DNA of 64,000 bases, taken from contig NC_086097.1 of the NCBI RefSeq assembly GCF_963921235.1, positions 127,226,001 through 127,290,000 of the forward strand, in the 5' to 3' direction. Positions 16,985-57,633 of this stretch are shown here, in pieces. Origin of the DNA: Mobula hypostoma (Eukaryota). Every line of letters starts with the position of its first letter. The stretch's first letter is position 1. The notes below the pieces were generated by a model. That model was not told the origin of the DNA, did not search any database, and saw nothing but the letters and a program-made list of their open reading frames with translations. The position numbers and the translations under genes were made by a program.

Positions 16985-17275
16985 TTGTTCCTTCCCCTCC
17001 CCTCCCCACCTTCTAGCTTTCGGCCCAAAATGTTGACTGTACTTCTCTTTCATCGATGCTACCTGGCCTGCTCGGTTCTTCCAACATTTTGTGTGTGTTG
17101 CTCAGATATCCAGCATCTGCAGATTTTCTCTTGTTTGTAGCTTCTTTCAATTTCCTCTCCAGTCCTGCTGAAGTGTGTTTGGCCTGAAATGTTGACTGTT
17201 TATTCCCTTCCATAGATGCTGCTTGACATGTTGAGTTCCTCCAGTATTTTGTGGGCATCTGCAGAATCTGTGTTA
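16985..17275 (+). mobile_element. Two nested or tandem PLE terminal-repeat fragments with decayed hammerheads
   Basis: Partial motif cggcccaaaatgttgactg at ~17021-17039 and cagtcCTGCTGA...GAAAtgttgactg at 17160-17198, each followed by the shared tail. Confidence 0.75.
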
Positions 17276-18939: not shown

Positions 18940-21900
18940 CAAACAGTTTATAAAAGGTCATGTGGTTCCTGGGATTTAAATTGCTCTCTATAACACCAGC
19001 CTCCTGACTTGATTTTGTTGCTGATGTTATGGGGTTTGGCGAGAGGGTGGTTTGAAACCGCCTCTATACAGTGCAGCTGGAGGTGGTGAAGATTTACAGT
19101 GAAGCACCACAAATTTAACATGTCCTTTGGCCTTGGGGCATCCACTGCTGTTTGAATTTTCTCAGCACACTTGTTTAATTCTCATGTGTCAATGGTGTGG
19201 CCACAGTAAGTGATGCTTGGTTTAAAGAATTCACAATTGTTGTGTTGTGCCCTTGGCCCACAGTCTTCTATTCTTTTTAACACTGTCTTGAGATTCTGGA
19301 GATGTTCCTGGGCTGCCTTGAAGTACCTGGTCCATAGCTTTCTTGCAGAATGCAGATGCTACTCCAAAAATAAACCTATTATAGAGATAAAGACCTTGGT
19401 GAGTGTTTATGGTGAGATACATTTTGGAATCTTCCACGTCCTTCTGTAAATAGGGCACACCTAAGTCCACTTTGCTGAAGTTTCCCTCCAGAAAAGTTTG
19501 CAAAGATATCCTGTGTCCTGGACAGTGTGTATTGACCTATATTCAGTACTGGATGATCTTAGAATCACCACAGATCCTGAAAGACCCATTCTTCTTGGCT
19601 ACTGGGACCACTGGTATTGACCATTCCACTTAACTTTGGAAAAAATTCCTTTGGTCTCCATGTAATCTAGCTCACCGGCTACTTTATCATAGATAGTATA
19701 AGGATGTGCTTTGCAAAACTTGGGTGTGGAATTTTCATTTAATGCTATTTTACCCTTGATATGTTTGAGTCATCCAGTGCCATCCTTGAACAGTGCTACA
19801 CTTGCCCCTACACCTCCTCCCTCACTACCATTCACCTGTGAGTCTGTTGGGGTCATATACTGTTTTTGGTGCTCCCAGTGTGGCCTCTTGTATGTCGGTG
19901 AGACCCGACGTAGATTGGGAGACCACTTCGCCGAGCATCTACGCTCCATCCACCAGAACAAGCGGGATCTCCCAGTGGCCACCCATTTTAATTCCACTTT
20001 CCATTCCCATTCAGATATGACTGACAATGGCCTCCTCCACTGTTGGGATAAGGCCACACCTAGGTTGAAGGAACAACACCTTATATTCTGTTTGGGTAGC
20101 CTCCAACCTGATGGCATGAACATTGATTTCTCAAACTTCCAGTAATGCCCTCCATCCCCCCCCCCCCGTTACCATTTCCCATCCCCTTTTCCCTCTCTCA
20201 TGTTATCTCCTTGCCTGTCCATCGCCTCCCTCTGCTGCTTCTCCCCCCCCCCCCTTTTCTTTCTTCCATTGCCTTCTGTCTCTCTCATTAAGCAACTTCC
20301 TGGCTTTTTGCTTCATCCCTCCACCCCCCCCCAAGTTTCACCTATCCCCTGGCGTTCATTCCGCCGCCCCCCCCCCCCACTTTTCAAATTGACTCCTCAG
20401 CTTTTGTGTCTCCAGTCCTGCCAAAGGGTTTCAGCCTGAAACGCCAACTGAACTTTTTTCCATAGATGCTGCCTGGCCTGCTGAGTCCCTCCGGCATTTT
20501 GTGTGTGTTGCTCGAACACTGCTGTTGGCTTTCCATTGACTCTGTTGCAGGGGAAGCAAATGGCAGATGGATTTCCAATCGATTTGTAGTAGTCTCAGCC
20601 AATCATGACCCCAAATGCTGGGCCTCGTGTTTTTACCATATACAAGCCCAATGTGACTTGTTGGTTGTTGTATTTAACTGCTACAAATGATATTCCCATA
20701 GGAGTTTTCCTTTCTCCAGGGCAAGTTCTTAGTTGGATATCTGCAGTTTCTGTATCTTTGAAATGCTGTTCAGACTCATTTTGTGGAATGACTGAAACAA
20801 TAGGTTTCAATAGGTGCATTTAATGTCAGATATGTATACAATATACATGGTGAAATTCTTTTTCTTCACAAACAGAGGAGTGCCCCAAAGAGTGAGTAAC
20901 AGTTAAAACCACAAAGAAACCCCAACTCCCCCCAACACACAAGTAGCGGCAAATCAACGACCCCCACTCCACCCCCACCACCAAATAGCACCAGCACCCT
21001 CCACCAAGCACTTAAGCGTGCAGCAAGCATCAATGAAGACAGACTTGCAGTACCCCAAACACTACTTGTTCACCCGATAATTCAACATTCTCTCTCTCGC
21101 TCTCTCTCATAGGGAAAAAAGGGGTGTTCCCATTTCACAGTGAGAGGGGAGACATAACAAACAATTCACTGGTTTAAGATGTTTAAAGTCTGTTGTGCTG
21201 CTTTTTCCAAACTCCGGGCAAACAACCCCCGGCCGCTAACCCGCTGCTCCTGATGTTCTGTGTTCTCCCGCAATGCTTCAGTCAGGGGTATTGGCCTAGG
21301 ATCAGCACGTTCCCAGAGCCACAAAATCCTGGAACCCTGAAGGTGCACTGTCTTCCAGGCCGCATGCTTGGGATATCAAAAAGCGTCTGGTTGTGAGGCC
21401 CTGAGGGCATGTCACATTCCTGCAAAGAACCGGTCAGAGTGTAACTCCAGGTCATGGTCTTCAAAAGAACACCCCACACCCTGAAACAGGAAAAAGAAGA
21501 GACAACAAAGATGGAAATAAAGCTGTTTGCAAAGATGCAAGCAAAGGAGTTGTGTTTAGCACCATTTTAACTGGCCCCACCAATGGCCGATCGAATATCC
21601 AATGCCGTTTTAATTTGCTGTTCACTTCTGGTGCAAGTCATATTCTCTTGTTAGTTTTGGCATTGTAAATCTCAACGCTACTCAGTCCTGAGTCACTCTC
21701 CAGGATTATCAGATTTATTTTATCAACAGCACACAGATTAGTGCTCTTTTTAAAATTTCAACTTGCCTTTTATCTTTCCCACTTCCTTGTGCAGTCCATT
21801 TACTTTTGTCTGCCTGACATGCTCTTTGTAGCTATCCTACTTTGCTGCATTTTCTTCAAGTCCCACAGGAGACCTTAAACATTGATTAGATGCTGCGTTG
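18940..21900 (-). mobile_element. Decayed Gypsy-type LTR retrotransposon internal region, interrupted by later insertions
   Basis: Minus-strand RT remnant NFSKVDL...DSKMYLTINTHQGLYLYNRFIFGVASA (19231-19503). Protease-end-like GPA..G.DWL remnant near 20590-20625. Boundaries approximate; no LTRs identified. Confidence 0.65.
19798..20510 (+). mobile_element. Penelope-like element 3' portion (GIY-YIG and terminal repeat) inserted in the Gypsy remnant
   Basis: GVIYCFWCSQCGLLYVGETRRRLGDHFAEH...GMNIDFSNFQ. Probable TSD cttgaacagtgct (19785-19797) / ctcgaacactgct (20511-20523). Decayed hammerhead at 20413-20450. Confidence 0.88.
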
Positions 21901-26787: not shown

Positions 26788-29300
26788 ATAGAAACATAGA
26801 AACATAGAAAATAGGTGCAGGAGTAGGCCATTCGGCCCTTCGAACCTGCACCGCCATTTATTATGATCATGGCTGATCATCCAACTCAGAACCCCGCCCC
26901 AGCCTTCCCTCCATACCCCCTGATCCCCGTAGCCACAAGGGCCATATCTAACTCCCTCTTAAATATAGCCAATGAACTGGCCTCAACTGCTTCCTGTGGC
27001 AGAGAATTCCACAGATTCACCACACTCTGTGTGAAGAAGTTTTTCCTAATCTCGGTCCTAAAAGGCTTCCCCTTTATCCTCAAACTGTGCCCCTTTGTTC
27101 TGGACTTCCCCAACATCGGGAACAATCTTCCTGCATCTAGCCTGTCTAATCCCTTTAGGATTTATACGTTTCAATCAGATCCCCCCCTCAATCTTCTAAA
27201 TTCCAACGAGTACAAGCCCAGTTCATCCAGTCTTTCTTCATATGAAAGTCCTGCCATCCCAGGAATCAATCTGGTGAACCTTCTTTGTACTCCCTCAATG
27301 GCAAGGATGTCTTTCCCAGATTAGGGAACCGAAACTGCACACAATACTCCAGGTGTGGTCTCACCAAGGCCTTGTACAACTGCAGTAGTACCTCCCTGCT
27401 CCTGTACTCGAATCCTCTCGCTATAAATGCCAGCATACCATTCGCCTTTTTCACCGCCTGCTGTAACTGCATGCCCACTTTCAATGACTGGTGTATAATG
27501 ACACCCAGGTCTCGTTGCACCTCCCCTTTTCCTAATTGGCCACCATTCAGATAATAATCTGTTTCCCTATTTTTGCCACCAAAGTGGATAACTTCACATT
27601 TATCCACATTAAATTGAATTTGCCCACTCACCCAACCTATCCAAGACCCTCTGCATCCTCTTAGCATCCTCCTCACAGCTAACACTGCCACCCAGCTTCG
27701 TGTCATCCGCAAACTTGGAGATGCTGCATTTAGTTCCCTCATCCAAGTCATTAATATATATTGTAAACAACTGGGGTCCCAGCACTGAGCCTTGCGGTAC
27801 CCCACTAGTCACTGCCTGCCATTCTGAAAAGGTCCCGTTTATTCCCACTCTTTGCTTCCTGTCTGCTAACCAATTCTCCACCCACACCAATACCTTACCC
27901 CCAATACCGTGTGCTTTAAGTTTGCACACTAATCTCCTGTGTGGGACCTTGTCAAAAGCCTTTTGAAAATCCAAATATACCACATCCACTGGTTCTCCCC
28001 TATCCACTCTACTAGTTACATCCTCAAAAAATTCTATGAGATTCGTCAGACATGATTTTCCTTTCACAAATCCATGCTGACTTTGTCCGATCATCTCACC
28101 GCTTTCCAAATGTGCTGTTATCACATCCTTGATAACTGACTCCAGCAGTTTCCCCACCACCGACATTAGGCTAACCGGTCTATAATTCCCTGGTTTCTCT
28201 CTCCCTCCTTTTTTAAAAAGTGGAGTTACATTAGCCACCCTCCAATCCTCAGGAACTAGTCCAGAATCTAACGAGTTTTGAAAAATTATCACTAATGCAT
28301 CCGCTATTTCTTGGGCTACTTCCTTAAGCACTCTAGGATGCAGACCATCTGGCCCTGGGGATTTATCTGCCTTCAATCCCTTCAATTTACCTAACACCAC
28401 TTCCCTACTAACATGTATTTCGCTCAGTTCCTCCATCTCACTGGACCCTCTGTCCCCTACTATTTCTGGAAGATTATTTATGTCCTCCTTAGTGAAGACA
28501 GAACCAAAGTAATTATTCAATTGGTCTGCCATGTCCTTGCTCCCCATAATCAATTCACCTGTTTCTGTCTGTAGGGGACCTACATTTGTCTTTACCAGTC
28601 TTTTCCTTTTTACATATCTATAAAAGCTTCTACAGTCCGTTTTTATGTTCCCTGCCAGTTTTCTCTCATAATCTTTTTTCCCCTTCCTAATTAAGCCCTT
28701 TGTCCTCCTCTGCTGAAATCTGAATTTCTCCCAGTCCTCAGGTGAGCCATTTTCTCTGGCTAATTTGTATGCTTCTTCTTTGGAATTGATACTATCCCTA
28801 ATTTTTCTTGTCAGCCACGGGTGCACTACCTTCCTTGATTTATTCTTTTGCCAAACTGGGATGAACAGTTGTTGTAGTTCATCCATGCAACCTTTAAATG
28901 CTTGCCATTGCATATCCACCGTCAATCCTTTAAGTGTCATTTGCCAGTCTATCTTAGCTAATTCATGTCTCATACCTTCAAAGTTACCCCTCTTTAAGTT
29001 CAGAACCTTTGTTTCTGAATTAACTATGTCACTCTCCATCTTAATGAAGAATTCCACCATATTATGGTCACTCTTACCCAAGGGGCCTCTCACGACAAGA
29101 TTGCTAATTAACCCTTCCTCATTGCTCAAAACCCAGTCCCGAATAGCCTGCTCTCTAGTTGATTCCTCGACATGTTGGTTCAAAAAACCATCCCGCATAC
29201 GTTCCAAGAAATCCTCTTCCTCAGCACCTTTACCAATTTGGTTCACCCAATCTACATGTAGATTGAAGTCACCATTATAACTGCTGTTCCTCTATTGCAC
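26788..29300 (-). mobile_element. Young CR1 LINE, 5'-truncated (end of AP endonuclease, RT and 3' UTR)
   Basis: ORF 27609..29246 has [47 protein letters not shown] and KFADDTKLG. The C-terminus continues in shifted frames (LVRPHLEYCVQF). Tail (TTCTATGT)n at 26788-26810. Confidence 0.95.
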
Positions 29301-29438
29301 AACCTTACGACAAGGTTGTGGTCCTCTTGGATGTCCTCCTGCTTTGAGTTTGCAAAGTTTGCATTCCATCTGCCACTGTTGCAGCTATGGCACAGGAATC
29401 CTGCAGTTTCACTATTCATTTTACCAGTCAATGCCCAA

Positions 29439-30657
29439 TTGAGGATGTGACTAAACTCATTGATGAAGGAAGAGCAGTAGATGTAGTGTATATGGATTTC
29501 AGCAAGACATTTGATAAGGTACCCCATGCAAGGCTTATTGAGAAAGTAAGGAGGCATGGGATCCAAGGGGACATTGCTTTGTGGATGCAGAACTGGCTTG
29601 CCCACAGAGGGCAAAGAGTGGTTGTAGATGCGTCATATTCTGCATGGAGGTCGGTGACCAGTGGTGTGCCTCAGGGATCTGTTCTGGGACCCTTACTCTT
29701 CATGATTTTTATAAATGATCTAGATGAGGAAGTGGAGGGATGGGTTAGTAAGTTTGCTGATGACACAAAGGTTGGGGGTGTTGTGGATAGTGTGGAGGGC
29801 TGTCAGAGGTTACAGTGGGACATTGATAGGATGCAAAACTGGGCTGAGAAGTGGCAGATGGAGTTCAACCCAGATAAATGTGAAGTGGTTCATTTTGGTA
29901 GGTCAAGTATGATGGCAGAATATAGTATTAATGGTAAGACTCTTGGCAGTGTGGAGGATCAGAGGGATCTTGGGGTCTGAGTCCAAAGGACGCTCAAAGC
30001 AGCTGTGCAGGTTGACTCTGTGGTTAAGAAGGGGTACGGTGTATTAGCCTTCATCAATCGTGGAACTGAATTTAGGAGCCGAGAGGTAATGTTGCAGCTA
30101 TACAGGACCCTGGTCAGACCCCACTTGGAGTACTGTGCTCAGTTCTGGTCACCTCACTATAGGAAGGATGTGGAAACTATAGAAAAGGTGCAGAGGAGAT
30201 TTACAAGAATGTTGCCTGAATTGGGGAGCATTCCTTATGACAACAGGTTGAGTGAACTTGGCCTTTTCTCCTTGGAGCAACGGAGGATGAGAGGTGACCT
30301 GATAGAGGTGTATAAGATGATGAGAGTCATTGATTGTGTGAATAGTCAGAGGCTTTTTCCCAGGACTGAAATGGTTGCCACAAGAGGACACAGATTTAAG
30401 GTGCTGGGGAGTAGGTACAGAGGAGATGTCAGGGGTACGTTTTTTACTCAGAGTGGTGAGTGCCTGGAATGGGCTGCTGGCAACGGTGGTGGAGGTGGAT
30501 CCGATAGGGTCTTTTAAGAGACTTCTGGATAGGTGCATGGAGCTTAGAAAAATAGAGGGCTATGGGTAAGCCTAGTAATTTCTAAGGTAGGGACATGTTC
30601 GGCACAGCTTTGTGGACCAAAGAGCCTGTATTGTGCTGTAGGTTTTCTATGTTTCTA
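29439..30657 (+). mobile_element. CR1 LINE 3' portion, second subfamily
   Basis: [48 protein letters not shown]. Tail ttctatgtttcta. A shorter copy of the same 3' end lies at ~31432-31700. Confidence 0.93.
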
Positions 30658-33600
30658 TTAGACCATCCAGCCCCTTAACTCTCTTCTGCCAATTGATCAT
30701 ATCCACTTCACTTCCTGAATACCTTGAAATATATCAGATGATGCAATTTTTCACAAACGGCTAGAAGTTTATCCGCATTTGAAATTTTTGTTCCATTGAC
30801 TTCAATGAAACCAATTTTAAACACGAGGTCTGGCAGAGGATTGGATTGGGCCATTAAATAGAAATAGATTTCCTGTTTGTGCCTGGTATTTCTCAAAAGA
30901 GCTTTGCTGAGGCCTTGGGTGCTGAAAACTCGTGTATGTCTTAAAAATTTAGTCATCAGCTTGCATCTCAACATCTACCTTTTGACGTACACACATTTAA
31001 CTCCCTAATGTGTCCCAATGCAGGACCTCCATCAGAAATTCATACTGCCTGATCCACTGAGTTCCTGCAGCTTGTTGTGATTTTGCTCCAGATTCCAGCA
31101 TCTGCATTCCCTTACCTTCATTCTGACTTCAGGCACCCTTTGAAATTGAGAAGGGCAAAATATGAATAGAGTCCTGTAACGAAACAAAGGTGTCTGCCCC
31201 ACAATCTTTGTGGGATTACTGAAATGCAGGCCTTTCTTTTCCACTCTCCCTGCTCCTGTAACCTAATCTTGCATGCTGCCTGTGCAGAGTTTGCACGTTC
31301 ATTGTGACCATATGATGCCCCAGTTTCCTCCTGATTAGCTTCCAAGAGAATTGAGGTGATTTGGATGAAATTTGATGAAAATGAAACAAAAACAGGGAAT
31401 GTTGAAAAGATTTGGCAGGTCAGGCAATGACTAGTGCTTGGAAGTAGGTACAAGGGAGATATCAGAGGTAATTTTTTCCACACAGAGAGTGGTGGGTGTG
31501 TGGAATGCACTGCCGGCGACATTGGTAGAGATGGATGCAATAGGGTCTCTTAAGAGACTTGATAGGTACATGGAGCTTAGAAAAATAGAGGGCTATGTGG
31601 TAGGGGAGTTCTAGGCAGTTTCTAGAGTAGGTTACATGGTCGGCACAGCATTGTGAGCCGAAGGGCCTATAATGTTCCGTAAATTTATATGTTCTAGGTT
31701 CTGTCCATACATCCAAAATTTTGATTGTTTCTATTTCTACAGATACTGTTGACTCAAGTTTTGTCAGCATTTTCAGTTTTTGTTTCAGATTTCTGGCATC
31801 GGCAGTTTTTTTTATTTGATTTCCAGTACAAAGGGATTTGTTCTGTTGGTCAGCATGGACTTGATGGGCCGAAGGATCTATTCCCCTGCAGTATGATTCT
31901 GTACTTTAAGTTGTGACCAGGTGCTATAATGGGTTGAAATGCTGGAATGCTGCTCCCGCTGACAATCAGACTTGTCCTGATCAGCCTGTATGTGTATTGT
32001 TCGTGAGTGTATGGCGTCATGGAAGAAATGAGTTCACGAATCCAAAGCCCACCAGTCACTGGTTGCACAGAAGCCAACTGTAAGGAGTTTGTATGCTCTT
32101 CCCCATGGCCACGTAGGTTTCTCTGGGTGCTCCAGTTTCCTCCCACAGTCCAAAGACGACAGGTTGGTCAGTTAATAGTTGTCCTGTGATGAGTCTCAGA
32201 TTAAATCGGGGGTTTGCTGGGTGGCGTGGCTCAAAGGGCGAGAAGGGCCTACTCTGAACTGTATCTCAATAAATAAATAAACAAAGTAAGTGTTTGTGGT
32301 GCTGCATACTGTGTATCTGCACAATTTGCAGGCTCTTCCCTGATTCCCAATCCCTGGAAGCCAACTCGAGTCCTCGTTAGGGTTTCTGACCTGTCTTGTC
32401 TCCTGTGGGGCTCATGATCTTTGTCCGAACTCACTAACCCACTAGGCAGCATGGCCCAAGCTCTTGGATCACTGTCTACCGTGGAGCCCCTCCAATCTCT
32501 AACTAAACGAATGGGTACATGTATAGGAAAGGATTAAAGGGATATGGGTCAAGTACAGGCAAATGAGACTAGGTCAGGGTGGCTTAGGTCCTGTTTCTAT
32601 GCTCTATGACTTTTAAATTGATCTCACTTTGGCCCTCGAACTGTCTGCCTGCCTTTCCACAGTTGCAATATGGAGAGGAAATATCAATAAACTAATAATT
32701 CAGACTGGGTAAATAAACCTTTTAGTAGGAAGGATATTTGCTGCGGTCTTTGTAACACAATTCCTGATTATTTTGAGGTGGGATGAAAATCAGCAAGACA
32801 ATTTGGTTTGCTTGCTCCTTTGCTAAGAAGGTTATGGACCAGGATTTTGGTAAATGGGGTGAAAGTGGATGGACAATTGACAGTCAGAATTGGAAAAGTT
32901 GACTGGGAAGATGGTTTCTGTGCTGCATAACTATGCAGTGAGTGATTTTTTTTGGTTTAGTGTCATGGCTGTGCAGCTGTTAATAAAAGCAGTGAAGATT
33001 GCTCTGTGCCACGTTCTATCCCCATTGTACTCTCCTCAGCTTCATGTCCCATGGGCATGTCCCTTTGGTACCTCTTTCCCACACGCTAGCCTCCACTAGC
33101 TGGAATCCCCGTTACTGGATTCCTGGAGATCCCAGGATGGACTAAAAACCTTCCAGTAAAGTGAAGCCATTTAGTTCTGAATTTCCTGGAAAAATTCTGA
33201 ACAGAAAATGCGTCCAAATCAAATGTTAACAATTAAGAGCGCAAGTTTCCTGTGGAACTTGTGAGAATGGGATTTATTTTATTTGGAGATACAGTGTGGA
33301 ACAGGTCCTTCTAGTCCTAAAGCCCACGTATTTCAACACTAGCCTAATTGCAGGACAAGTACACTGACCAATTAGCATGCTAACCAGTGTGCCTTTGAAA
33401 TGCGTGAGGAAACGAACCACCCAGAGGAAACACACACAGTTCACGGGGAGAGTGTACTAACTCCTACAGGCAGTGCTGGAATTGAACTTCGAACTCTGGA
33501 ACTAATAGCATCAATGAACCGCTGGAAGATCAGATGGAAAATTGTAACCCACGACAATGAATGTGTTTTTCATTCAACTGCTATCTACCAAAGGAATTGA

Positions 33601-34005
33601 CCGCCATTGTGCAACCTTCTGAAAATCAATTGTTGGATGCTATGCTCTGGGTAAATTGGAGCCAAAAGCCCAACGCCATATTGGTCTTATCTTACAGTCA
33701 CTGTGTTTTTGCCTGTAGCTTTCGGACAAGGAAGAGGAGTAGTAGGCCATTAATGGGCGTTCTAGCTGAGGCAGTGCTGCTGCTTTTGAAAGATCAGCCC
33801 CTGGTTTTTGGCCCAGACTGAACCATCAGCTTAATTTACTGCTTCATGAAATAAAGCAAAGCAGTCAAACAGCAGAATCGTAATCCATCACAAGGAGAAT
33901 TTAAACGCAAACAACAGGAATTCTGCAGATGCTGGAAATTCAAGCAACATACATCAAAGTTGCTGGTGAACGCAGCAGGCCAAGCAGCATCTATAGGAAG
34001 AGGCG

Positions 34006-34047
34006 CAGTCGACGTTTCAGGCCGAGACCCTTCGTCAGGACTAACTG
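34006..34047 (-). ncRNA. Minimal type I hammerhead ribozyme motif in the inverted PLE arm
   Basis: Reverse complement reads cagttagtc-CTGACGA-agggtctcggcct-GAAA-cg-TC-gactg. Confidence 0.85.
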
Positions 34048-34520
34048 GAGGAAGAGTGAGTAAGGGATTTGAAAGCTGGAGGGGGAGGGGGAGATGCAAA
34101 ATGATAGGAGAAGACAGGAGGGGGAGGGATAGAGCCGAGAGCTGGACAGGTGATAGGCAAAAGGGGATACGAGAGGATCATGGGACAGGAGGTCCGGGGA
34201 GAAAGACGGGGGGGGGGACCCAGAGGATGGGCAAGGGGTATATTCAGAGGGACAGAGGGAGAAAAAGGAGAGTGAGAGAAAGAATGTGTGTATAAAAATA
34301 AGTAACAGATGGAGTACGAGGGGGAGGTGGGGCATTAGCGGAAGTTAGAGAAGTCGATGTTCATGCCATCAGGTTGGAGGCTACCCAGACGGAATATAAG
34401 GTGTTGTTCCTCCAACCTGAGTGTGGCTTCATCTTTACAGTAGAGGAGGCCGTGGATAGACATGTCAGAATGGGAATGGGATGTGGAATTAAAATGTGTG
34501 GCCACTGGGAGATCCTGCTT

Positions 34521-36608
34521 TTCCGTGTTCGCCACGATGCGGAACTTTTCTTCCGCTGTCTCCGTCTCCGAGCCTACTTCTTCGGCAAGGACTCTTCCAC
34601 CCCCACCGATGACCCCTTCTCCCGTCTTCAACCCTCCTCTTCTTCATGGACACCCCGCTCTGGTCTTCTGCCTGCTCTGGATCTCTTTATTGCCAACTGC
34701 CGACGGGACATCAACCGTCTCGACTTCACCGCACCTTGTTCCCATTCCAACCTCACTCCTTCGGAACGCTCTGCTCTCCACTCCCTCCGCACTAATCCTA
34801 ACCTTATTATTAAACCCGCTGATAAAGGGGGTGCTGTTGTAGTCTGGCGTACTGACCTCTACCTTGCCGAGGCACAGCGACAACTCGCGGATACCTCCTC
34901 TTATTTACCCCTCGATCGTGACCCCACTAAGGAGCACCAGGCCATTGTCTCCCACACTATCAACGACTTTATCCGCTCAGGGGATCTCCCATCCACTGCT
35001 ACCAACCTTATAGTTCCCACACCCCGCACTTCCCGTTTCTACCTCCTACCCAAGATCCACAAACCTGCCTGTCCTGGCCGACCTATTGTCTCAGCTTGCT
35101 CCTGCCCCACCGAACTCGTTTCTGCATACCTCGACACTGTTTTATCACCCCTTGTTCAATCCCTTCCGACCTATGTTCGTGACACTTCTCACGCTCTTAA
35201 ACTTTTCGATGATTTTAAGTTCCCTGGCCCCCACCGCTTTATTTTCACCATGGATGTCCAGTCCTTATATACTTCCATCCCCCATCAGGAAGGTCTCAAA
35301 GCTCTATGCTTTTTGGATTCCAGACCTAATCAGTTCCCCTCTACCACCACTCTGCTCCGTCTAGCGGAATTAGTCCTTACTCTTAATAATTTCTCCTTTT
35401 GCTCCTCCCATTTCCTCCAAACTAAAGGTGTAGCTATGGGCACCCGTATGGGTCCTAGCTATGCCTGCCTTTTTGTTGGGTTTGTGGAACAATCTATGTT
35501 CCGTGCCTATTCTGGTATCTGTCCCCCACTTTTCCTTCGCTATATCGACGACTGCATTGGCGCTGCTTCCTGCACGCATGCAGAACTCGTTGACTTTATT
35601 AACTTTGCCTCCAACTTTCAGCCTGCCCTCAAGTTTACCTGGTCTATTTCCGACACCTCCCTCCCCTTTCTAGATCTTTCTGTCTCTGTCTCTGGAGACA
35701 GCTTATCCACTGATATCTACTATAAGCCTACTGACTCTCACAGCTATCTGGACTATTCCTCTTCTCACCCTGTCTCTTGCAAAAACGCCATCCCCTTCTC
35801 GCAATTCCTCCGTCTCCGCCGCATCTGCTCTCAGGATGAGGCTTTTCATTCTAGGACGAGGGAGATGTCTTCATTTTTTAAAGAAAGGGGCTTCCCTTCC
35901 TCCACTATCAACTCTGCTCTTAAACGCATCTCCTCCATTTCACGTACATCTGCTCTCACTCCATCCTCCCACCACCCCACTAGGAATAGGGTTCCCCTGG
36001 TCCTCACCTACCACCCCACCAGCCTCATGGTCCAACATATTATTCTCTGTAACTTCCGCCACCTCCAACGGGATCCCACCACTAAGCACATCTTTCCCTC
36101 CCCCCCTCTCTCTGCATTCCGCAGGGATCGCTCCCTACACAACTCCCTTGTCCATTCGTCCCCCCCATCCCTCCCCACTGATCTCCCTCCTGGCACTTAT
36201 CCGTGTAAGCGGAACAAGTGCTACACATGCTCTTACGCTTCCTCCCTTACCACCATTCAGGGCCCCAAACAGTCCTTCCAGGTGAGGCATCACTTCACCT
36301 GTGAGTCGACTGGGGTGATATACTGCGTCCGGTGCTCCCGATGTGGCCTTTTATATATTGGTGAGACCCGACGCAGACTGGGAGACCACTTTGCTGAACA
36401 TCTACGCTCTGTCCGCCAGAGAAAGCAGGATCTCCCAGTGGCCACACATTTTAATTCCACATCCCATTCCCATTCTGACATGTCTATCCACGGCCTCCTC
36501 TACTGTAAAGATGAAGCCACACTCAGGTTGGAGGAACAACACCTTATATTCCGTCTGGGTAGCCTCCAACCTGATGGCATGAACATTGACTTCTCTAACT
36601 TCCGCTAG
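34521..36608 (+). CDS. Penelope-like reverse transcriptase plus GIY-YIG endonuclease; open frame, N-terminally truncated
   Basis: Part of ORF 34374..36608. RT motifs PADKGGAVVVW, FTMDVQSLYTSIP, GVAMGTRMGPSYA and LRYIDD; Cys-rich linker CKRNKCYTC; endonuclease GVIYCVRCSRCGLLYIGET. The first 49 aa of the listed ORF come from the inverted arm and are not native. Confidence 0.93.
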   Translation, partial: FRVRHDAELFFRCLRLRAYFFGKDSSTPTDDPFSRLQPSSSSWTPRSGLLPALDLFIANCRRDINRLDFTAPCSHSNLTPSERSALHSLRTNPNLIIKPADKGGAVVVWRTDLYLAEAQRQLADTSSYLPLDRDPTKEHQAIVSHTINDFIRSGDLPSTATNLIVPTPRTSRFYLLPKIHKPACPGRPIVSACSCPTELVSAYLDTVLSPLVQSLPTYVRDTSHALKLFDDFKFPGPHRFIFTMDVQSLYTSIPHQEGLKALCFLDSRPNQFPSTTTLLRLAELVLTLNNFSFCSSHFLQTKGVAMGTRMGPSYACLFVGFVEQSMFRAYSGICPPLFLRYIDDCIGAASCTHAELVDFINFASNFQPALKFTWSISDTSLPFLDLSVSVSGDSLSTDIYYKPTDSHSYLDYSSSHPVSCKNAIPFSQFLRLRRICSQDEAFHSRTREMSSFFKERGFPSSTINSALKRISSISRTSALTPSSHHPTRNRVPLVLTYHPTSLMVQHIILCNFRHLQRDPTTKHIFPSPPLSAFRRDRSLHNSLVHSSPPSLPTDLPPGTYPCKRNKCYTCSYASSLTTIQGPKQSFQVRHHFTCESTGVIYCVRCSRCGLLYIGETRRRLGDHFAEHLRSVRQRKQDLPVATHFNSTSHSHSDMSIHGLLYCKDEATLRLEEQHLIFRLGSLQPDGMNIDFSNFR

Positions 36609-36900
36609 GCCCCACCTCCCCCTCGTACCCCAGCTGTTACTCATTTTTATGCACACATTCTTTCTCTCACTCTCCTTTTTCTCCCTCTGTCCCTCTGAAT
36701 ATACCTCTTGCCCATCCTCTGGGTCACCCCCCCCCCCCCCGTCTTTCTCCCTAGGCCTCCTGTCCCATGATCCTCTCGTATCCCCTTTTGCCTATCACCT
36801 GTCCAACTCTCGGCTCTATCCCTCCCCCTCCTGTCTTCTCCTATCATTTTGCATCTCCCCCTCCCCCTCCAGCTTTCAAATCCCTTACTCACTCTTCCTT

Positions 36901-36942
36901 CAGTTAGTCCTGATGAAGGGTCTCGGCCTGAAACGTCGACTG
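36901..36942 (+). ncRNA. Minimal type I hammerhead ribozyme motif in the PLE 3' repeat
   Basis: cagttagtc-CTGATGA-agggtctcggcct-GAAA-cg-TC-gactg. Conserved core, short stem II, stem I (t)agtc/gact(g), and helix III reduced to the palindrome ACGT. Predicted cleavage after GUC at 36937. Confidence 0.85.
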
Positions 36943-37561
36943 CGCCTCTTCCTATAGTATGCTGCTTGGCCTGCTGCGTTCACCAGCAACTTTGATGTAT
37001 GTTACAAGGAGAATTTATCGCATTTCATCATCTGACCTCCAGGCTTACTGATCTCGTGTAAAATTGGAAACTGTTTCATGGGTACTGTATGACTTGCAGC
37101 TAATCACTGAAATGACCAGTGGCCTTGGTACCTTGATTACATTATGTGCTAACAGCCTCATTTTAACCCCCACAGAATCTATGTTGACCGCCAACTATCC
37201 ACTTACATTAATCCTGCACGAGCGCCATTGAATTCTCCACATACCCATCAATGCCCCACAGATTCTACCACTCACCTCTATATATCTGGGGCAATTTGCA
37301 GCAGTCACTGATAATTTACTGACCCACATGCCTTTGAAATGTGGGAGGAAACAGGAGCATCTGGAGGAAACCCATGTGCTCACAGGGATTTTACAGTACT
37401 ATAATGAAAGGTACCATATCAAGTGATCTTTGTGTATTTTCCAACTTGCAGAACTGTCAACTTAAGGATGCCTTTGAAAACACAACCAGTTTGTTACCCT
37501 GTATATGAAGCCATCAAACTGTTGTTTAAAAACCTGACTCTGTCTTTAATGTCTTCTAGGG

Positions 37562-40901: not shown

Positions 40902-41094
40902 TTGAGCAGGAAGAAGACTTTACTCTTTACCAGCCACACCGACAGGAGTACAAATTTAATCTGTCCCAAATTCCAGAGGGAGAAGCTGTCACGGCTGCAG
41001 AGTTCCGAATTTACAAGGAGTGGGTCAGAAGCCGCTTTGAAAACGAGACATTTGAGATTGGCATCTACCAGGTGTTGCGTGAAAATGCAGACAG
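40902..41094 (+). CDS. BMP6: Internal coding exon (equivalent to exon 2) of a BMP5/6/7/8-subfamily gene, TGF-beta prodomain; most like BMP6
   Basis: Polypyrimidine tract and acceptor (tttccttgcag) ending at 40901, GTAGGT donor at 41095, length 193 bp. Translation (V)[63 protein letters not shown](R) contains the subfamily motif [24 protein letters not shown] is BMP6-like. Subfamily call is firm; the paralogue (BMP6 vs BMP7) is less so. Not in the ORF track. Confidence 0.88.
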
Positions 41095-44000: not shown

Positions 44001-44686
44001 AAATCTTTAGAAACAGATCTATTTTGAAACCATTGCATCTTTCAGCTCACTTTTCCAGTTGGAAAGATTCCTTAATGAGTTGATTCCCACTCTAATGAGG
44101 CATGACGGAATTGAATTGAATACCAATGCATAAGCTACCTTGGGGTTAACAACCCTGACTAGTCAAACAAAGCTGTTACGGAACCAGCAAAGAAGGATCC
44201 TTCTACACCTGGGTGCAATGGTGTTCGTGCATGACTGGCAGTAAACCGCGAGGAAGCTACTGATGTGATGAAGGAAGCCGTGAGCGCTACGAGAGATGGA
44301 GGACCTTCACTGCTCCCTACACACCAGCAGTGTGACAGGCAAAAAAGGAAGAACGCTTAAGATGCTGCTCAACACTCTTAAACTCAAGAATCCCGCAAAG
44401 AAACCCAGAGGAACTCAGCAGGTCAGGCAGCATCTTTGGAGAGGAATAAACAGTGGACATTTCAGGCCAAGACCCTTTATCAGGTTAACAATCTTTCTAC
44501 TGCTGAAAAACTTGGGGCTTTAGGATGTAAGAAATGTCAAATTTCTGTATTCCGTGATAGTTTCATTTTTAATTTTTAAAAAGTTTGAAACTTCAGTTTC
44601 TGATTCTACTCCTTGTATGTGTCCTAGTCTTTATCTCATCTTTGTATGAGCTGTGTGATAATTCCCACTTGGTTCTACCTAGTTGT

Positions 44687-44895
44687 CCACATCAAAGTTG
44701 CTGGTGAACACAGCAGGCCAGGCAGCATCTCTAGGAAGAAGTACAGTCGACGTTTCGGGCCGAGACCCTTCGTCAGGACTAACTGAAGGAAGAGCTAGTA
44801 ACATCTCTTCCTAGAGATGTTGCCTGGCCTGCTGCGTTCACCAGCAACTTTGATATGTGTTGCTTCAATTTCCAGCATCTGCAGAATTCCTCGTG
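44687..44895. mobile_element. 209-bp fold-back PLE-derived mini-element carrying a hammerhead
   Basis: Flanked by tctacctagttgt (44674-44686) and tctacctagctgt (44896-44908). Inverted arms at ~44689-44739 and ~44806-44857 match the terminal repeat of the 33904-37003 element. Confidence 0.85.
44744..44785 (-). ncRNA. Minimal type I hammerhead ribozyme motif with intact core
   Basis: Reverse complement reads cagttagtc-CTGACGA-a-gggt-ctcg-gccc-GAAA-cg-TC-gactg. Confidence 0.85.
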
Positions 44896-47800
44896 TCTAC
44901 CTAGCTGTGTTGTCTTTGGGAAAGCTTCATTGTAGTTGGTTGATTAACTGCTTGCTGTGTGCCAGAGCTCCCTTGGAGCTAATGACAGAATAGAATTACT
45001 GCTCAGAAGACTCTGATACTGACTGTAAAATTCCAGGTCATTAACCTGTTTTTCCTGTTCAAATGCTGATTCCTTGTACAGAATTCTTGCTGTGACACTG
45101 AAATTTCTGTTATCCAAATGGTGCAAAAATGATTAACCATTTCACATTGAATGCGTCATATTTTCTTTCCAATTCATTGCTTTCATGAAGTTTTTCTCAA
45201 AAGATTTTCAAACAGTGGCTTCATTTCTCCCAGTCTGATCTGGGTTCAAATATTATACATTCACCCAGAGTAACTGTGATTTAGTTTTCTCTGTCAAGCT
45301 GTTTCAGGTAAGTAATTGGAGTCAAATTCCAATAATCCAACACCTAAGGTCAAGGTAGAGTTATTACAATATTCACAAGAACATGTATGCACAGGCACAG
45401 TGACAAACATATTTGTAGCACCATCACAGGCACTTAGCATTACAGACACATCATTCACAAGAAAAACATAAATTAGACATAGATTATACGCAATTTCTAC
45501 AAGAAAGAATGCAATTAGAACAAAAACATTAATTGTAGTGCAAGTATGGTCGTCGTGTTGCTACTCTTGAGGTAGTGAGTAGGGTTGAGGAGGTTGGTAC
45601 AAGAACTGAATAGATGAAGAGAAATAGCTGTTCTTGTACCTGGTGGTGTGGGACTTAAGGCTTCGGTACATAGTGTCCACTGGGAATTTGATAGTGAATT
45701 TTCTGGACTATTGGTAATTACACTTTCCTTTCATCACTCTGACATCTGATGCAGTAATATAATAATTTTTGCCGTGGCTAGAATTCAAAGGGAGCAGGAA
45801 ATATACAAGCAATTGAGACCACTGGCTCTGGCTACAGACGTGTCTATGTTCCTGAACCCTATTGTTTCAGACTCCAGTTCCAATGATATACCTGGCCTGC
45901 ACTCCCAGCACATATTTCCAGACTGATTTGACCCGGATGCTGGATCACCAGGATTTCCAAAACAATTGGATATTGGCTTATTGGAGTTTGACTGCATTTT
46001 TTTCCTTTGCTACTATCTTTGTATATCACCAGACAAAAAGCCTGGGTTTTGCAAAAACAATTTAGTGCACTGTGTGGTATGAGTTTTGACTTTTGGCTGG
46101 AGTGAACAAGAACAGATGTGGGAGATGAGAGGGGGGAGAAACTGAGGCATCCAGTAGGTTTCCGCATCTTCGTAAAGGAAGTAGTGGCAAAAAAGGCAAG
46201 TGAAAACTCATTTCAGTGGCAGCTTCAAAATCCAACAAAGTACTGAGTAAGTGTGATCATTGTTTAACATGGGAAATCCCCCAGCTAATGTGTGCACGGC
46301 AGGCTCCCACAAGTATCAGGTTAAATTGTTTCGACGACAGTGGTTGAGGGATAAGTATCGGTTTGGGACTATGGATAACTCACACCTAGGAGGCTGCATG
46401 TATGGAATAAACTGCCAGAGAAAATAGCTGGGACAGGTGCAATAGCAACATTTAAAAGACACATTGATGCGTACCTGAATAGGAAAGGTTGAAAGATATG
46501 AGTCAAATGTGGACAAATGAAACTAGGTCAGATGTACACTTCCCTACTCCCGCTGAGGGTAGTATCATGAAATTAGTTTCCATTTCACACTCTCCAGCAA
46601 TTTAGCATTTCCTCAACAGCCTAGATTTTTGTGCTGGAGCAGAATTTGAACCAACAAACAGGCAATAGTCCTGAAGAAGGGTCTCGGCCTGAAATGTTGA
46701 GTGTTTATTCGTTTCCATAGATGTTGCCTGGCTTGCTGAGTTCTTCCAGCATTTTCTGTGATTTGAACAGGAGATAATGCTACTGAATGAGCCACTGCTG
46801 GGGAGTCTCCCCTTTCTTATCATTCCAAAACTGTGCATTGCAAAGAAACAAAAATTTGAAAAGGGAATATCAAAGCAGATGATCTTGAAAATACTTTTAG
46901 CGGACAAGTAGTTTTGAGTAAAATGCACAAAGTACTGGAGAAACTCAGCAGGTCAGGCAGCATCTATGGAGGGGAATAAACAGTCAACTTTTCGGCCCAA
47001 GACCCTTCATCAGGAAGGGTTCTTGGTTCTTGCCGCAATTTTTGCGTGTTACACTGGATTTCCAACATTCTCAGAATGTCTTGTGTTTACATCCATTTTG
47101 ATATCTGTTAACTTCTACCCACAGAACTTGTTGGGCTGCGTTGAAGGTGCCTTGTCCTAAGTGAAGATTCAAACAGTGGCACTGGAAAAAACGTCAATAA
47201 TCTAGTACTGTCTGGGCTTTGGTGCCAGAATAGCAGTTTCAGCTCATCAAGCAGACCCCATCTCCAGTATGAAACCTACCCACAGTCCTGACCACCACCC
47301 CCCGTGTTCCTGTTCCTGATCCTGACCCAGAGTCCAGCTGCACACTGGTCCCAGCCACACAAAAGACCTCCAGCTCAAGTTGTACATCCCAAACCATGTC
47401 AGGTTAATGAACGAGCCAAATTCCAAATGACTGGAATTTCTGAATAATTAGATTCTGGATTAAAGAAATTTCTCCTCATCTCCTTTCTAAATGGACGTCC
47501 CTGTCGCCTGAGGTTGTGTTCTCTGGTCTTTGACTCCCCCACTATAGTAAATGTGCTGTCCATATCCACTCTGTCTAGGCCTTTCAATAATTGATAGGTT
47601 TTAGTGAGATCCTGCCTCATTCTTCCAAACTCTAGCAAGTACAAGCCCAGAACCATCAGAGACTCCTCAGACATTACTGTTTCCTTCCCAGAATATTCTT
47701 CATGAACCTCCCCTGGATTCTCTCCAACCCCAGCACATCCTTTCGTAGATTGGGGCCCAAAACTGCACACAATGCTCCAACCAATGCCTTAGAAGCCTGA

Positions 47801-48441: not shown

Positions 48442-50978
48442 CGAGACAACCCGGTGACCCATTGCAGTCTAATGTGATGTGCTTTGGAAATTAAAGAAGA
48501 AAAACTCAGTTTATTAAAGAAGAAAGACGCGTGGAAAGACAAATAGAGCTCCTCCTCATTTAACGAAGGACACTTTTGATGACAACATTTCTGGTTGATC
48601 CGCCACCCCTCAGGAATGCTCTAACGTTTTCATTTCTTTTTCCCTGGCTTAAAGCCACGTACAGCTGACCATGCTGGAATACTGGTTTCTCCAAATAAAT
48701 CAACACATTCTCCATTGTTTGGCCTTACACCTTATGTATAGTCATAGCAAAGCGTGACTGTATCGGGAACTGGCTCCGCTGAAGAGGGATATCTTCCCCT
48801 TCTGATAAACAGAGTAATTCTTGGGATCATGACAATGTCATTTTTGAACGCACCAGTGTTTATCTTTGCTATGATGAGATTGTCGTGTAGTTCTTCCACC
48901 ATCATTCGCGTTCCATTGCAAAGCCTTGGTGGATCCAAGTTCCTCGTTGAAATGATGGGAGATCCCCTCTTCAATTCCAGTTTATGTGGTGGCAATCCGG
49001 AGAGTTCGACCGAATCAAGGAATTCTGTTGGAAAATGAGTGGTGTTAGTTCCTTCACTTACGGCATTGAAGGAACAGTATTCTTTCATGATTCCAGGGAA
49101 GTGTCTAATGCATGTGAAGTTGGGTTTTTTTTTTGCATCATTTCATTGAGTGGAACCAAGATAGAATTCCTCGAGAACAGTTCTGCACGATTGTCAAATG
49201 TCGGGTAGATGAAATTAATCCATTCTTCCATAGTTTTTGCTGTCAGAATCATATCTTCAGGTAATTCAATTTCATCATTTTCATTTTTCTCAATTTTGTC
49301 TTCTCCAACATCCAATAAGAACTCAGAATATCATCCTTCTTCCTCACTCAATCGCATGTTTCTCTTCAATTGAAACTTGATGAAGCTTCTCCATAAGTAG
49401 AACTTTTTTATGCATGAATTCTCCACATCAGCATCATTTCCATGTTTCACAACTGCTAGAAGCTGACGGAAATCGCCACAGCAAATGGTTAAAATATTAG
49501 ATTATGAAAACACGCAGACCTGTTTTATTGTCATTTAGTAAAGCATGCATTAAGAAATTATGCAATATTCCTCCGGTGTGATATCACAAAACACAGGACA
49601 GACCAAGCCTGGAAAAAAACTAACAAAACCACATAATTATAACATATAGTTACAACAGTGCAACAATACCCTAACTTGATGAAGAAGTCCATGAGCACAG
49701 TAAAAAGCTCAAAGTTTCTCAAATGTCCCACATCTCATGCAGACGGGAGAAGGAAGAAAAACTCTCCCTGCCATGCCCGACCATAGTCCGACTGAGTCAT
49801 CCGAAAACTTTGAGCCTCTGATCAGCTCTCCGACACCGAGTACTGAGCACCATCTCTATCCAAATGATTCGACCTCAATCTCGGTTGCCAACAGCAGGCA
49901 AAGCCAGGGATTTTGAGGCCTTCCCACCAGAAGATTCCCAATCTCGCAGTAACAACAGCAGCGAACTGGCGTTTCAGAAATTTCTCCAGATGTTCCTCTG
50001 TGCTTTCACGTCTCTCTCCATCAAATCAGAATTGTCCACGGCCCCTATTTAATGGATACAATATCATTTTTCACCGGAGGGTTGCGCACGCTCTCTCTCT
50101 CCTCCTGCTGGCCCCCTGAATACCCCCGAAGGCCTCATTCTTGCTGCATACATCACGAAGAGTCCAGTCCACGGCTTTGAAGTTCTCCCTCCTAATCATA
50201 GAGCACTCATTCCAGACAATAAGCCTCGCATTTTGGAGTAACTTTGCAGTATTGGTGTTTTTATCGATGTTACAAAGGGCATCTTCATTGACTTTGAGGG
50301 GTATTTTGAATCTTGAATGTGCTGTCCTACCACGAGGCATCAGGCGTTGCTGCAATACCTGATGATGCTACAGCAATAGCAACACCTCCATCTCCCCTAT
50401 CTCTAGCGAGGATCAAGTTCATGATAAATGTCTCCCATTCCTCCTGGTGCATCAATGAAAGTCATTGAAGAGAGATTCCTTTCTGGTGTCATCTCTTGAC
50501 CATAATGTCCCCCTTCTTTTTCCACGCAGCATAACTAGGCTGTCCATATTTTTTTACCCTAATGCTTGATAGAAGATACGAGGCAGTAACACCAAAGCCT
50601 CCAGGATGCTGATTTTTCTTGATGATGTGGTTGGCGGTCTCTTAAATGGACATGATAGCCCTGCCCTTTTGCTGTGGTTGGTGTCACTGCTGTGAGCATC
50701 ATGAGGTGCTGCTGAGGCTGGCCGTGCGCATGCGTCGTGGTGTCATGTCGCAGTTTCCATTAAAGCTGGAATTGGCTCGGGTGGTGGAAAGCAGAGCCTG
50801 TTGATTGATGAGTGAGCAATCTTGTGCGAATATATAACCTGAACTTTGCATGCATTCTGTAAGTTAGTGCATTTTAAGTCGATTTAGTCAAAAAAAAGTG
50901 CTGCTGTAATGCATTGTTTGGGCTAATTGGAGGTCACAAACAGACAAATAGAGCATGAGAATTTTAGTAGTATATAAA
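48442..50978 (-). mobile_element. Internally deleted Helitron with a pseudogenised PIF1-family helicase
   Basis: Minus-strand motifs FIDAPGG.G/TF, AVASSGIAA, GRTAHSRFKIPL, FGGILTICCGDFRQ, GLPPHKLELKRG, RNLDPPRLCNGTR, QFPIQSRFAMTIHK and HGQLYVALS. Inserted between A and T of CR1 gaggcaca^tgataaa with no TSD. 5' end TTTATATACTACTAAAA, 3' end GTCTCG. Confidence 0.88.
49497..50118 (-). mobile_element. Copy of the 23408-24077 family inserted in the Helitron helicase
   Basis: Shares gaggaacatctggag...ttctgaaa and the 3' end ...caataaaa...cataatctaa. aata is repeated at 49493-49496 and 50119-50122. Excision rejoins FGGI|LTICCGDFRQ. Confidence 0.82.
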
Positions 50979-57410: not shown

Positions 57411-57484
57411 TTTATAATACTTGATGGAAGTTCAACTGTGTTTTCAAACTCAACCATTTAATGATCCTCCTCCTCTTTCGGCAG

Positions 57485-57633
57485 AGATACAGATCTGTTC
57501 CTTCTGGATACGAGGACAGTTTGGGCCTCTGAGGAAGGCTGGCTGGTGTTTGACATCACTGCTACAAGCAACCTGTGGGTGATGAGCCCCCAACACAACC
57601 TAGGACTCCAGCTACGGGTGCAGACCATCGACG
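57485..57633 (+). CDS. BMP6: Next coding exon (equivalent to exon 3) of the same BMP6-like gene, prodomain
   Basis: Acceptor (cctctttcggcag) ending at 57484, donor GTGCGT at 57634, length 149 bp. Phase joins the previous exon (AG|A = Arg). Translation [49 protein letters not shown](G); LDTR-VW, SNLWV and PQHN are BMP6-type residues. Confidence 0.88.

Follow-up and report, generated by a model that had tools for sequence, protein, structure and literature searches.

A likely non-autonomous Neptune-type Penelope-like insertion with two inverted, hammerhead-bearing arms, inserted after a species split in a mobulid-type ray

Published insertions of EN+ Penelope-like elements (PLEs), as the accessible parts of PMC8557442 and PMC3846280 describe them, contain an inverted 5′-truncated copy and carry a tail of 30-40 bp on one end only. 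According to the same portion of PMC8557442, a CX2-5CxxC linker between RT and EN is present in Neptune and Nematis and absent from Penelope/Poseidon, and Neptune itself is reported to be paraphyletic. For the anole PLE, the available sections of PMC11167929 report that in vitro both target strands are nicked and extended with no need for target homology, that reverse transcription starts at two adjacent internal sites bounding the tail, and that the protein is a predicted dimer; these sections give no explanation of inverted insertions and draw no link between tail and strand. A literature search on twin priming in Penelope returned nothing on PLE structure, the term being absent from those sections of PMC11167929, and a search with most subscription journals outside its reach returned no paper on Penelope together with Mobula or manta ray.

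Within the window, the 64-kb stretch of ray DNA that we analysed, one insertion displays this layout (Table 1). We consider it likely to be a non-autonomous, 5′-truncated, double-primed insertion that belongs to a very abundant Penelope-like family of Neptune type and was made in a mobulid-type ray after its split from relatives. The anatomy given in the original prediction was reproduced. The 14-bp TSD is perfect (14/14), a match with a chance of ~5e-9 at one fixed pair of places; an inverted copy of the 3′ end is joined to the truncated 5′ end, the family match of the left arm running to 34521; the left arm is 42 nt longer than the right; and the "dozen or so" differences between the arms (576/582 bp, 96.4% identity over 583 columns) are 13 substitutions, 11 of them transitions, plus 3 indels. 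The frame begins with the codon at 34521, and the 1-base overlap at the junction was deduced from the residues of a shark relative. The 42-nt overhang is the Penelope "tail" of the available descriptions (PMC8557442, PMC3846280, PMC11167929), and the inverted truncated copy conforms to the textbook Penelope layout. There is no target homology at the right end of the insertion. EN+ PLEs are characterised by terminal repeats in direct or inverted orientation, a tail at a single end and TSDs of variable length; the inverted arrangement with its one-sided tail and TSD recurs in a second insertion at 44.7 kb; in 2/2 insertions the tail sits on the shorter piece, and both junctions join unrelated truncation points (2 cases). 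Both TSD-bearing insertions lie in non-repetitive sequence and show no bias to microsatellites, a preference hypothesised for Neptune and not strictly defining.

Table 1. Positions of the features discussed, numbered from the first letter of the window
Feature	Position	Strand	Remarks
Left TSD copy	33890..33903	.	14 bp, 14/14 identical to 37004-37017
Tail	33904..33945	-	42 nt; inverted arm only; same tail sequence ends older copies in window
Inverted 5′-truncated copy (left arm)	33946..34521	-	last 62 ORF codons, 3′ UTR/pLTR, hammerhead
Left-arm minimal type I hammerhead motif	34007..34042	-	core 34011-34038
Inversion junction	34521	.	at most 1 base common to both pieces; no palindrome
5′-truncated PLE ORF	34521..36608	+	695 codons + stop; RT, linker, GIY-YIG
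CX4CxxC zinc-finger-like linker	36204..36230	+	aa 562-570; Neptune/Nematis type
GIY-YIG endonuclease core (VIY, CxxC, YIG)	36315..36584	+	codon 623 (36387-36389) His, elsewhere Arg
Right arm	36422..37003	+	ORF end + 3′ UTR/pLTR; ends without tail
Right-arm minimal type I hammerhead motif	36906..36941	+	core 36910-36937; predicted cut after 36937
Right TSD copy	37004..37017	.	identical to left copy
Host exon, part of TGF-beta propeptide	40902..41093	+	Pfam PF00688, E 5e-15; exon prediction, splice sites
Miniature insertion, same family and anatomy	44674..44908	.	13-bp TSD, one mismatch
Tail-less piece of second insertion	44688-44801	-	carries hammerhead
Inverted tailed piece of second insertion	about 44804-44895	+	

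The uninterrupted RT and GIY-YIG frame, counted at 696 codons in the original prediction, comprises 695 codons and a stop. It encodes both the RT and, C-terminal to it, the GIY-YIG domain in one ORF, as in EN+ PLEs, judging from motifs and from Pfam matches below the curated cut-offs (RVT_1, aa 187-348, 23.5 bits vs 29.6; GIY-YIG, aa 598-672, 16.1 bits vs 22.6). A DKG motif lies at aa 98-104, and the RT catalytic Asp residues at aa 245, 343 and 344 are intact. Scoring 8000 candidates gave 2080 homologues at E<=1e-20, which come without clade labels; PDB sequence searches returned no relevant structure, the sole match being unrelated (E 0.16). The three linker Cys residues are conserved in 116/117, 113/116 and 115/115 homologues, and this motif, which Nematis shares, would place the element in the Neptune clade, an assignment by motif and not from a tree. 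Inside the GIY-YIG core, Cys 605 is kept in 115/116 homologues and Cys 608 in 111/115, and candidate endonuclease His residues follow residues 626 and 642. Position 623 is His in this copy and Arg in 113/113 covering homologues; from the "R, H, E, N" statement in the available part of PMC8557442, we infer that this Arg is the catalytic residue.

The earlier description of the element as near-intact has to be withdrawn, as ~200 N-terminal residues are missing and the endonuclease carries the Arg-to-His change. In the 50 of 120 homologues that are 850 aa or longer and whose alignment begins at the start of the frame, the N-terminal extension beyond that start has a median of 200 residues (range 118-304), and the missing part includes a conserved GxKF-like motif. 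The first methionine within the PLE part of the frame is residue 244; in-frame ATGs come from the inverted arm (34470, 34476 and 34494), and one codon is absent near 35304. The attributes of an autonomous copy, namely a complete ORF with its start and N-terminal motifs, a preceding direct pLTR and intact endonuclease catalytic residues, are lacking, and only the inverted arm lies upstream of the ORF. The copy is probably dead and would have lost its activity.

Hammerhead motifs occur in the terminal repeat of both arms, as is typical of EN+ PLEs, and their cores fall inside the stretches originally predicted at 36901-36942 (+) and 34006-34047 (-); the element class then proposed, a Penelope-like element, is upheld as an EN+ PLE with minimal type I hammerheads, recognised by motif. 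The left-arm motif consists of helix I, the core, an extra A and a 4-bp helix II, with no helix III loop, and in both arms a G.U replaces G-C at the base of helix II. The canonical GUC rule sets the predicted cut position. A motif scan found 3 hammerhead motifs in the window, compared with an average of 0.24 and never more than 2 across 100 dinucleotide-block shuffles, and a single intact motif on the sense strand of the 64 kb. An Rfam search at E<=1 gave 0 matches. Minimum-energy folding of the single strand predicted the hammerhead in neither arm (z -0.50 and +0.77), and the 44.7-kb copy was predicted to fold nearer to it (z -0.70).

A TGF-beta-family exon lies 3.9 kb downstream of the element and on the same strand, so that the element is in sense orientation; a short-motif search for an upstream host exon found none. 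This sense position, together with the open 695-codon frame, the intact RT catalytic residues, the ATGs supplied by the inverted arm and an arm duplex predicted in silico to be very stable (-1209 kcal/mol), could suggest that the copy is a present or recent autonomous source, or else a regulated ribozyme or dsRNA switch in a host transcript. We regard either role as very improbable in view of the absent N-terminal residues and GxKF-like motif, the lost invariant Arg, the lack of an upstream direct pLTR and the one intact sense-strand hammerhead motif in the window, of a type that, in the available part of PMC4209133, did not cleave as a monomer in vitro. For the same reason there would be little for the arm duplex to mask, and any host role would be young because the element is absent from two relatives. 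By its position, a putative duplex attracting ADAR or Dicer in the host pre-mRNA is plausible.

Absence from the relatives was judged from contigs of this species (A), a closer relative (B) and a second relative (C). A contig of B matches 33289-33903 and continues with 365 unlike letters, one of C matches 33128-33903 and continues with 28, and one of A extends 20 nt into the tail. An empty site in both relatives is supported by sequence matches that end exactly at the TSD end (33903). The flanks of A and B differ at 26/1118 positions (2.3%).

Among the listed differences (40 of 200, chosen by the tool), 18 were element positions at which most A contigs differ from this copy. Taking as the copy's letter whatever was not the listed other letter, and counting contigs and not reads, we found it at 19.6-49.0% of depth in A vs 0-9.7% in B at 9 of the 18, at 3.3-9.5% vs 0.2-1.0% at 4, and without excess in A at the remaining 5; in two runs some differences went uncounted, and the DNA of this species (X1-X4) is one sample that may be the source of the window. 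Summed contig depth in A amounted to 26,000-257,000x that of the flank, or 840-8,300x after division by 31, figures that are not copy numbers. The family is very abundant and 3′-biased in depth, and the subfamily probably has thousands of copies. For one run, presumed to be RNA, contigs covered the element, with few or none in unique flank; this says nothing on expression, strand or editing. Shared ORF changes were synonymous in 7/11 cases against a neutral fraction of 0.29 (p 0.018), and private ones in 0/4 (Fisher p 0.051 vs shared). The best explanation is a source lineage under purifying selection that was still expanding after the species split. The recent activity proposed for the family is accordingly borne out as post-speciation activity, by the empty site in two relatives and the species-enriched alleles.

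Divergent arms had seemed puzzling in an insertion whose TSD is perfect and whose frame is open. There is no puzzle, because both are probable at this age: the probability of a perfect TSD is 0.73 at 1.1% per copy, and that of a frame without stop is 0.51-0.80 after 30 to 10 substitutions. They are also expected if the arms were identical at the start and aged simply, with all differences post-insertion, a reading to which we give an even chance. Mutation is faster in a CpG-bearing element than in its flank. Simple ageing is consistent with the 11 transitions among the 13 changes and with the 3-4 of 13 changes at CpG (p 0.027-0.004), and it yields 13 or more substitutions with a probability of 0.21-0.54 if 10-13 are expected. 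The CpG check named in the original prediction therefore came out as ageing predicts, whereas the number of differences is as high as the species split allows. Ageing would require an insertion nearly as old as the A-B split, and it fits less well with the few clearly private sites, at least 5 in 2.5 kb among the listed 40 of 200 differences.

Somewhat short of an even chance, in our estimate, is an origin of the arms from two separate templates, be they distinct RNAs or distinct repeat units such as the two pLTRs, upstream and downstream, in a tandem source; with a similar reserve, part of their difference would then predate insertion. The 13/576 substitutions (2.3%) equal the whole A-B flank divergence, though the insertion must postdate that split, and many ORF departures from the family are inherited and not private, which lowers the ageing estimate; the probability of 13 or more is 0.027 for an expectation of 7 and 0.002 for one of 5. 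Set against other copies, the right arm is odd at 8 substitutions and 3 indels and the left at 3, with 2 sites unassigned, and the right-arm letter occurs elsewhere at two sites (in a loose end of 13 contigs in B and in the 44.7-kb copy). However, this asymmetry falls short of significance (p 0.23, or 0.057 if indels are counted), the differences cluster only weakly (p 0.047-0.36 across 8 settings, with one <0.05), the left-arm letter at 34313 is plainly private (0.9% in A), and both arms share species-enriched alleles (33950, 34004) as well as the helix II G.U. Protein searches with UTR reading frames for the alleles of other copies yielded 0/553 and 1/147 candidates, the one being already known, and a degenerate pattern for the variable UTR stretch matched no metagenome contig. 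We rejected ADAR editing of the template as an explanation of the arm differences (at most 3/13 A/G sites, p 0.50).

To account for the inverted structure, we propose that the element's endonuclease would nick both target strands 14 nt apart, each target 3′ end then priming its own cDNA near the RNA 3′ end. Synthesis at the left nick would start at the outer site, tail included, and copy 618 nt; at the right nick it would start 42 nt further in, without tail, and copy 2.48 kb. Head-to-head joining of the two cDNAs would involve no more than one common base, and fill-in would yield the TSD; the copy would then age neutrally and lose the invariant endonuclease Arg. This double priming and the order of its events are what we infer from the observed anatomy, truncation, empty sites, species-enriched alleles and second insertion. 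An inverted arm might instead be made by fold-back self-priming or a template switch in a single cDNA synthesis, and palindromes at inverted rotifer Penelope junctions have been read as self-priming in the accessible part of PMC3846280. That origin is improbable here: the junction has no palindrome and brings together two points 1.9 kb apart, one at about codon 200 in full-ORF numbering and the other 62 codons short of the stop, and the inverted piece contains 42 nt that the long piece lacks.

Double priming may, more specifically and only tentatively, be the work of one dimeric RT-endonuclease complex carrying two RNA templates and priming both staggered nicks, one from the outer start (tail) and one from the inner. 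Start-site use in the anole PLE, alike on both strands in the available sections of PMC11167929, counts against the strand-specific outer and inner starts of the double-priming proposal as a whole. If the dimer reading is true, the arms of one insertion should often differ in subfamily haplotype, with the tail on the shorter piece, and a young species-enriched ray subfamily with nested diagnostic alleles would be its natural test. Long-armed young insertions allow the inverted structure and one-sided tail to be tested directly in the genome for one versus two templates. The locus also reveals a Penelope family still expanding after speciation in a ray, with a species-enriched subfamily making up a fifth to half of family depth in the compared contigs.

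The insertion itself is ordinary Penelope architecture. In LINE-1 twin priming both target nicks prime cDNA, the inversion is accompanied by a TSD and short microhomology, and each of the two cDNAs covers its own part of a single RNA, without overlap. The ray element resembles it in the proposed priming of both nicks, the inversion, the TSD and the short microhomology, but its cDNAs would share 576 nt, each starting close to the 3′ end. With the minimal hammerheads of metazoan PLEs, as far as PMC4209133 was available, it shares the conserved core, the unpaired base between positions 9 and 10.1, the palindromic 15.2-16.2, the missing helix III loop and the short helix I; unlike them, the ray arms have a G.U in place of the conserved G10.1-C11.1 pair and a helix II of 4 bp, and their two motifs occupy opposite strands and cannot form a dimer together. 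Adineta vaga Pen2a/Pen2 (PMC3846280, in part) are alike in inverted terminal repeats, a tail at one of them and a similar TSD size (8-10 bp there), whereas their arms are short pLTRs (about 200 bp) with often palindromic junctions and the ray arm includes 62 ORF codons and a non-palindromic junction. Poseidon of Anolis carolinensis (PAc), in the available sections of PMC11167929, likewise has two end classes separated by the tail, an AT-rich target end, no primer-template homology at the right end and a hammerhead upstream of the ends, but as a member of Penelope/Poseidon it lacks the linker zinc finger. Closest are the Neptune-type EN+ PLEs in the accessible part of PMC8557442, which share the single RT and C-terminal GIY-YIG ORF, the DKG motif, the CX2-5CxxC linker, two Cys inside the GIY-YIG core, 5′ truncation, the inverted truncated copy, the one-end tail and the terminal-repeat hammerhead; the ray copy differs from them in having no upstream direct pLTR or partial tandem, in lying in ordinary sequence and not in a microsatellite, and in a tail of 42 nt against the published 30-40.

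The Penelope-like element (PLE) copy has the anatomy foreseen in the original prediction, namely a perfect 14-bp target-site duplication (TSD), inverted arms each bearing a hammerhead, a left arm 42 nt longer than the right and an uninterrupted RT and GIY-YIG frame; all four were recovered. The hammerhead motif in each arm is of the minimal type I: helices I and II measure 4 bp each, the core is followed by one extra A, and a helix III loop is lacking. The window holds three matches to this motif against 0.24 expected (100 shuffles). An Rfam search gave no match, the hammerhead fold was predicted in neither arm taken alone, and the RT and GIY-YIG matches both lie under the Pfam cut-offs.

Features of the focal copy and of its surroundings
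Feature	Position	Strand	Remarks
PLE insertion (focal copy)	33890-37017		bounded by direct repeat
Direct repeat (14 bp)	33890-33903, 37004-37017		100% identity
Left arm	33946-34521	-	96.4% identity to right arm
Right arm	36422-37003	+	
Left-arm surplus (tail)	33904-33945		42 bases
Open frame	34521-36608		695 codons
Second, miniature inverted insertion, focal family	44674-44908		anatomy as focal copy; 13-bp TSD matching 12/13
TGF-beta propeptide exon	40902-41093	+	Pfam TGFb_propeptide, E 5e-15
Further TGF-beta-family exon	~57480-57630	+	short motifs; ~16 kb from propeptide exon

Of 8000 candidates scored, 2080 are homologous to the focal protein at E<=1e-20; among the matches listed the highest identity (92-93%) is to Mobula hypostoma gene models, which points to a mobulid-type ray as host. 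The earlier description of the copy as near-intact did not survive this comparison. The 50 homologues of at least 850 aa aligning from the focal frame start, out of 120 listed, extend beyond it by a median of 200 N-terminal residues, and the missing part includes a conserved motif directly before the breakpoint. One codon is absent near 35304, residue 623 is His (Arg in 113/113 homologues covering the position), residue 367 is Gln (His in 102 of 120), and no direct repeat lies upstream of the copy. The open frame is unremarkable for the age of the copy, because the probability of staying open is 0.51 at 30 substitutions and 0.80 at 10. On sequence features the copy is classed, by the definitions in PMC8557442, as a Neptune/Nematis type EN+ PLE. 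It is a real, well-preserved, non-autonomous insertion of known architecture. The truncated ORF is continued upstream, in the same reading frame, by an open stretch on the antisense strand of the inverted arm, giving a chimeric frame (34302-36608, +, 768 codons stop to stop) to which the arm contributes ATGs at 34470, 34476 and 34494; this in-frame joining is probably chance. Two ray models in the homologue list, P0018 and P0035, named as isoforms of 'divergent protein kinase domain 1C' and 'chitinase domain-containing protein 1', consist mostly of PLE ORF and are likely annotation artefacts or exonised copies.

Contigs from 4 of 24 listed runs were aligned over 32800-36421, with minus-strand coordinates taken in the record's own orientation, in agreement with another record overrunning the stretch start. 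In organism A, the window's species (flank share 0.94), a 642-nt contig covers flank sequence and 20 nt of the adjoining tail. In the closer relative B, the match of a 980-nt contig spans 33289-33903 and is followed by 365 unlike letters; in the more distant C, that of an 811-nt contig reaches as far as 33903, with 28 unlike letters beyond. Both matches stop exactly where the duplication ends, which is what an empty site would give, seen from the match ends and not from the letters beyond; the insertion is therefore younger than the A-B split (flank divergence 2.3%; 5.8% for C). At elasmobranch rates this would still amount to millions of years. The A contigs and the window disagree at flank positions 33587 and 32945, the A letter at 33587 being that of B and C; the A contig covering 33587 nonetheless extends into the element, so the insertion may lie on two haplotypes, or the window may be in error there.

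The difference table gave 40 tool-chosen rows of 200, 31 of them in the element, of which 13 where the focal copy agrees with most of A were set aside. Among the 18 remaining listed rows, the depth without the other letter was 19.6-49.0% in A versus 0-9.7% in B at nine (6.8-34.7% in a second study of A) and 3.3-9.5% versus 0.2-1.0% at four, with no A excess at five; these shares come from contigs, not reads, with counting partial in two runs. The A-enriched letters therefore place the origin of the copy in a nested subfamily whose expansion took place in A, and the predicted recent activity of the family holds in that its source subfamily was active after speciation. Shared ORF changes are synonymous in 7/11 cases (neutral 0.29, p 0.018) and private ones in 0/4, as expected of a source lineage under selection whose copy then decayed neutrally. 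The Gly-to-Cys change at aa 294 (35400) is not private, the same letter occupying about half of A depth and <1% in B.

The arms differ by 13 substitutions, of which 11 are transitions, and by 3 indels. Their letters were compared with the read-through of P0019, a homologue from the protein search, with contig loose ends plus one table row, and with other window copies. The right arm was the deviating one at 8 substitutions and at the 3 indels, the left arm at 3 substitutions, with 2 sites undecided (p 0.23; 0.057 with indels). Ageing alone, to which we give an even chance of accounting for the differences, is favored by CpG enrichment (p 0.027-0.004), by young alleles common to both arms and by one clearly private left-arm site. 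Different templates for the two arms, a reading we hold at slightly below even, would suit an arm distance of 2.3%, equal to the whole A-B flank distance, the largely inherited ORF divergence and the presence of two right-arm letters in other copies. The differences cluster weakly (corrected count). An edited template as their source was not supported.

The copy lies in sense orientation 3.9 kb upstream of the propeptide exon, most likely in an intron; a search of the window for the upstream host exon gave nothing. The host gene probably belongs to the BMP5-8/Gbb group, in line with Atlas leads that score below 0.9. Pairing within transcripts is common among intronic inverted repeats, and the arms are predicted to be able to pair in the host transcript.

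Many fragments of older PLEs, with 66-85% identity to the focal copy, occur at 3111-4886, 6381-7218, 8860-10995, 17020-17238, 19831-20516, 44411-44484, 46666-47015, 59780-59900 and 62042-62225; several of them end at the tail sequence of the focal copy. By eye, the translations show long RT-like frames that belong to LINE-type elements of other kinds (27266-30559, 50923-51408 and 53336-54811, all -; 56677-57069, +), and the frame at 48732-49142 (-) resembles part of a PIF1/Helitron-type helicase. A left-flank short repeat (~33200-33430), at ~150 times flank depth and related to 37329-37352, is probably a SINE fragment.

In the miniature insertion, the tail sits on the shorter, inverted piece, and the longer piece, without tail, holds a hammerhead with a canonical G-C pair. 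The right end of the focal copy has no homology to the target, and its two pieces share at most one base at a junction without palindrome. Fold-back self-priming of the inverted arm fits poorly. A dimer carrying two templates may make inverted insertions, a reading we hold at well below even. Double priming at a staggered cut, suggested by the two insertions and anole biochemistry, fits the geometry and is the likely mechanism. The cut would leave 3' overhangs of 14 nt, and a cDNA would be primed from each; the left cDNA would start at the tail end and copy 618 nt, the right one would start 42 nt further inside and copy 2.48 kb, and the two would be joined with at most one common base. In vitro, according to PMC11167929, nicking and extension occur on both target strands, the tail is the stretch between two internal reverse-transcription start sites and hammerhead cleavage is dispensable; minimal hammerheads as single units show no cleavage (PMC4209133). 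A literature search with partial coverage returned no paper that names twin priming as a Penelope mechanism, and the accessible portion of a 2026 retrozyme preprint adds nothing further on inversions. Inverted pLTRs carry a tail on one of the pair, with duplications of 8-10 bp (PMC3846280), and PLE copies have at the 5' end an inverted 5'-truncated copy, with a 30-40 bp tail often on one end only (PMC8557442). The focal copy, with its inverted 5'-truncated copy and one-ended tail, has the EN+ PLE layout published there.
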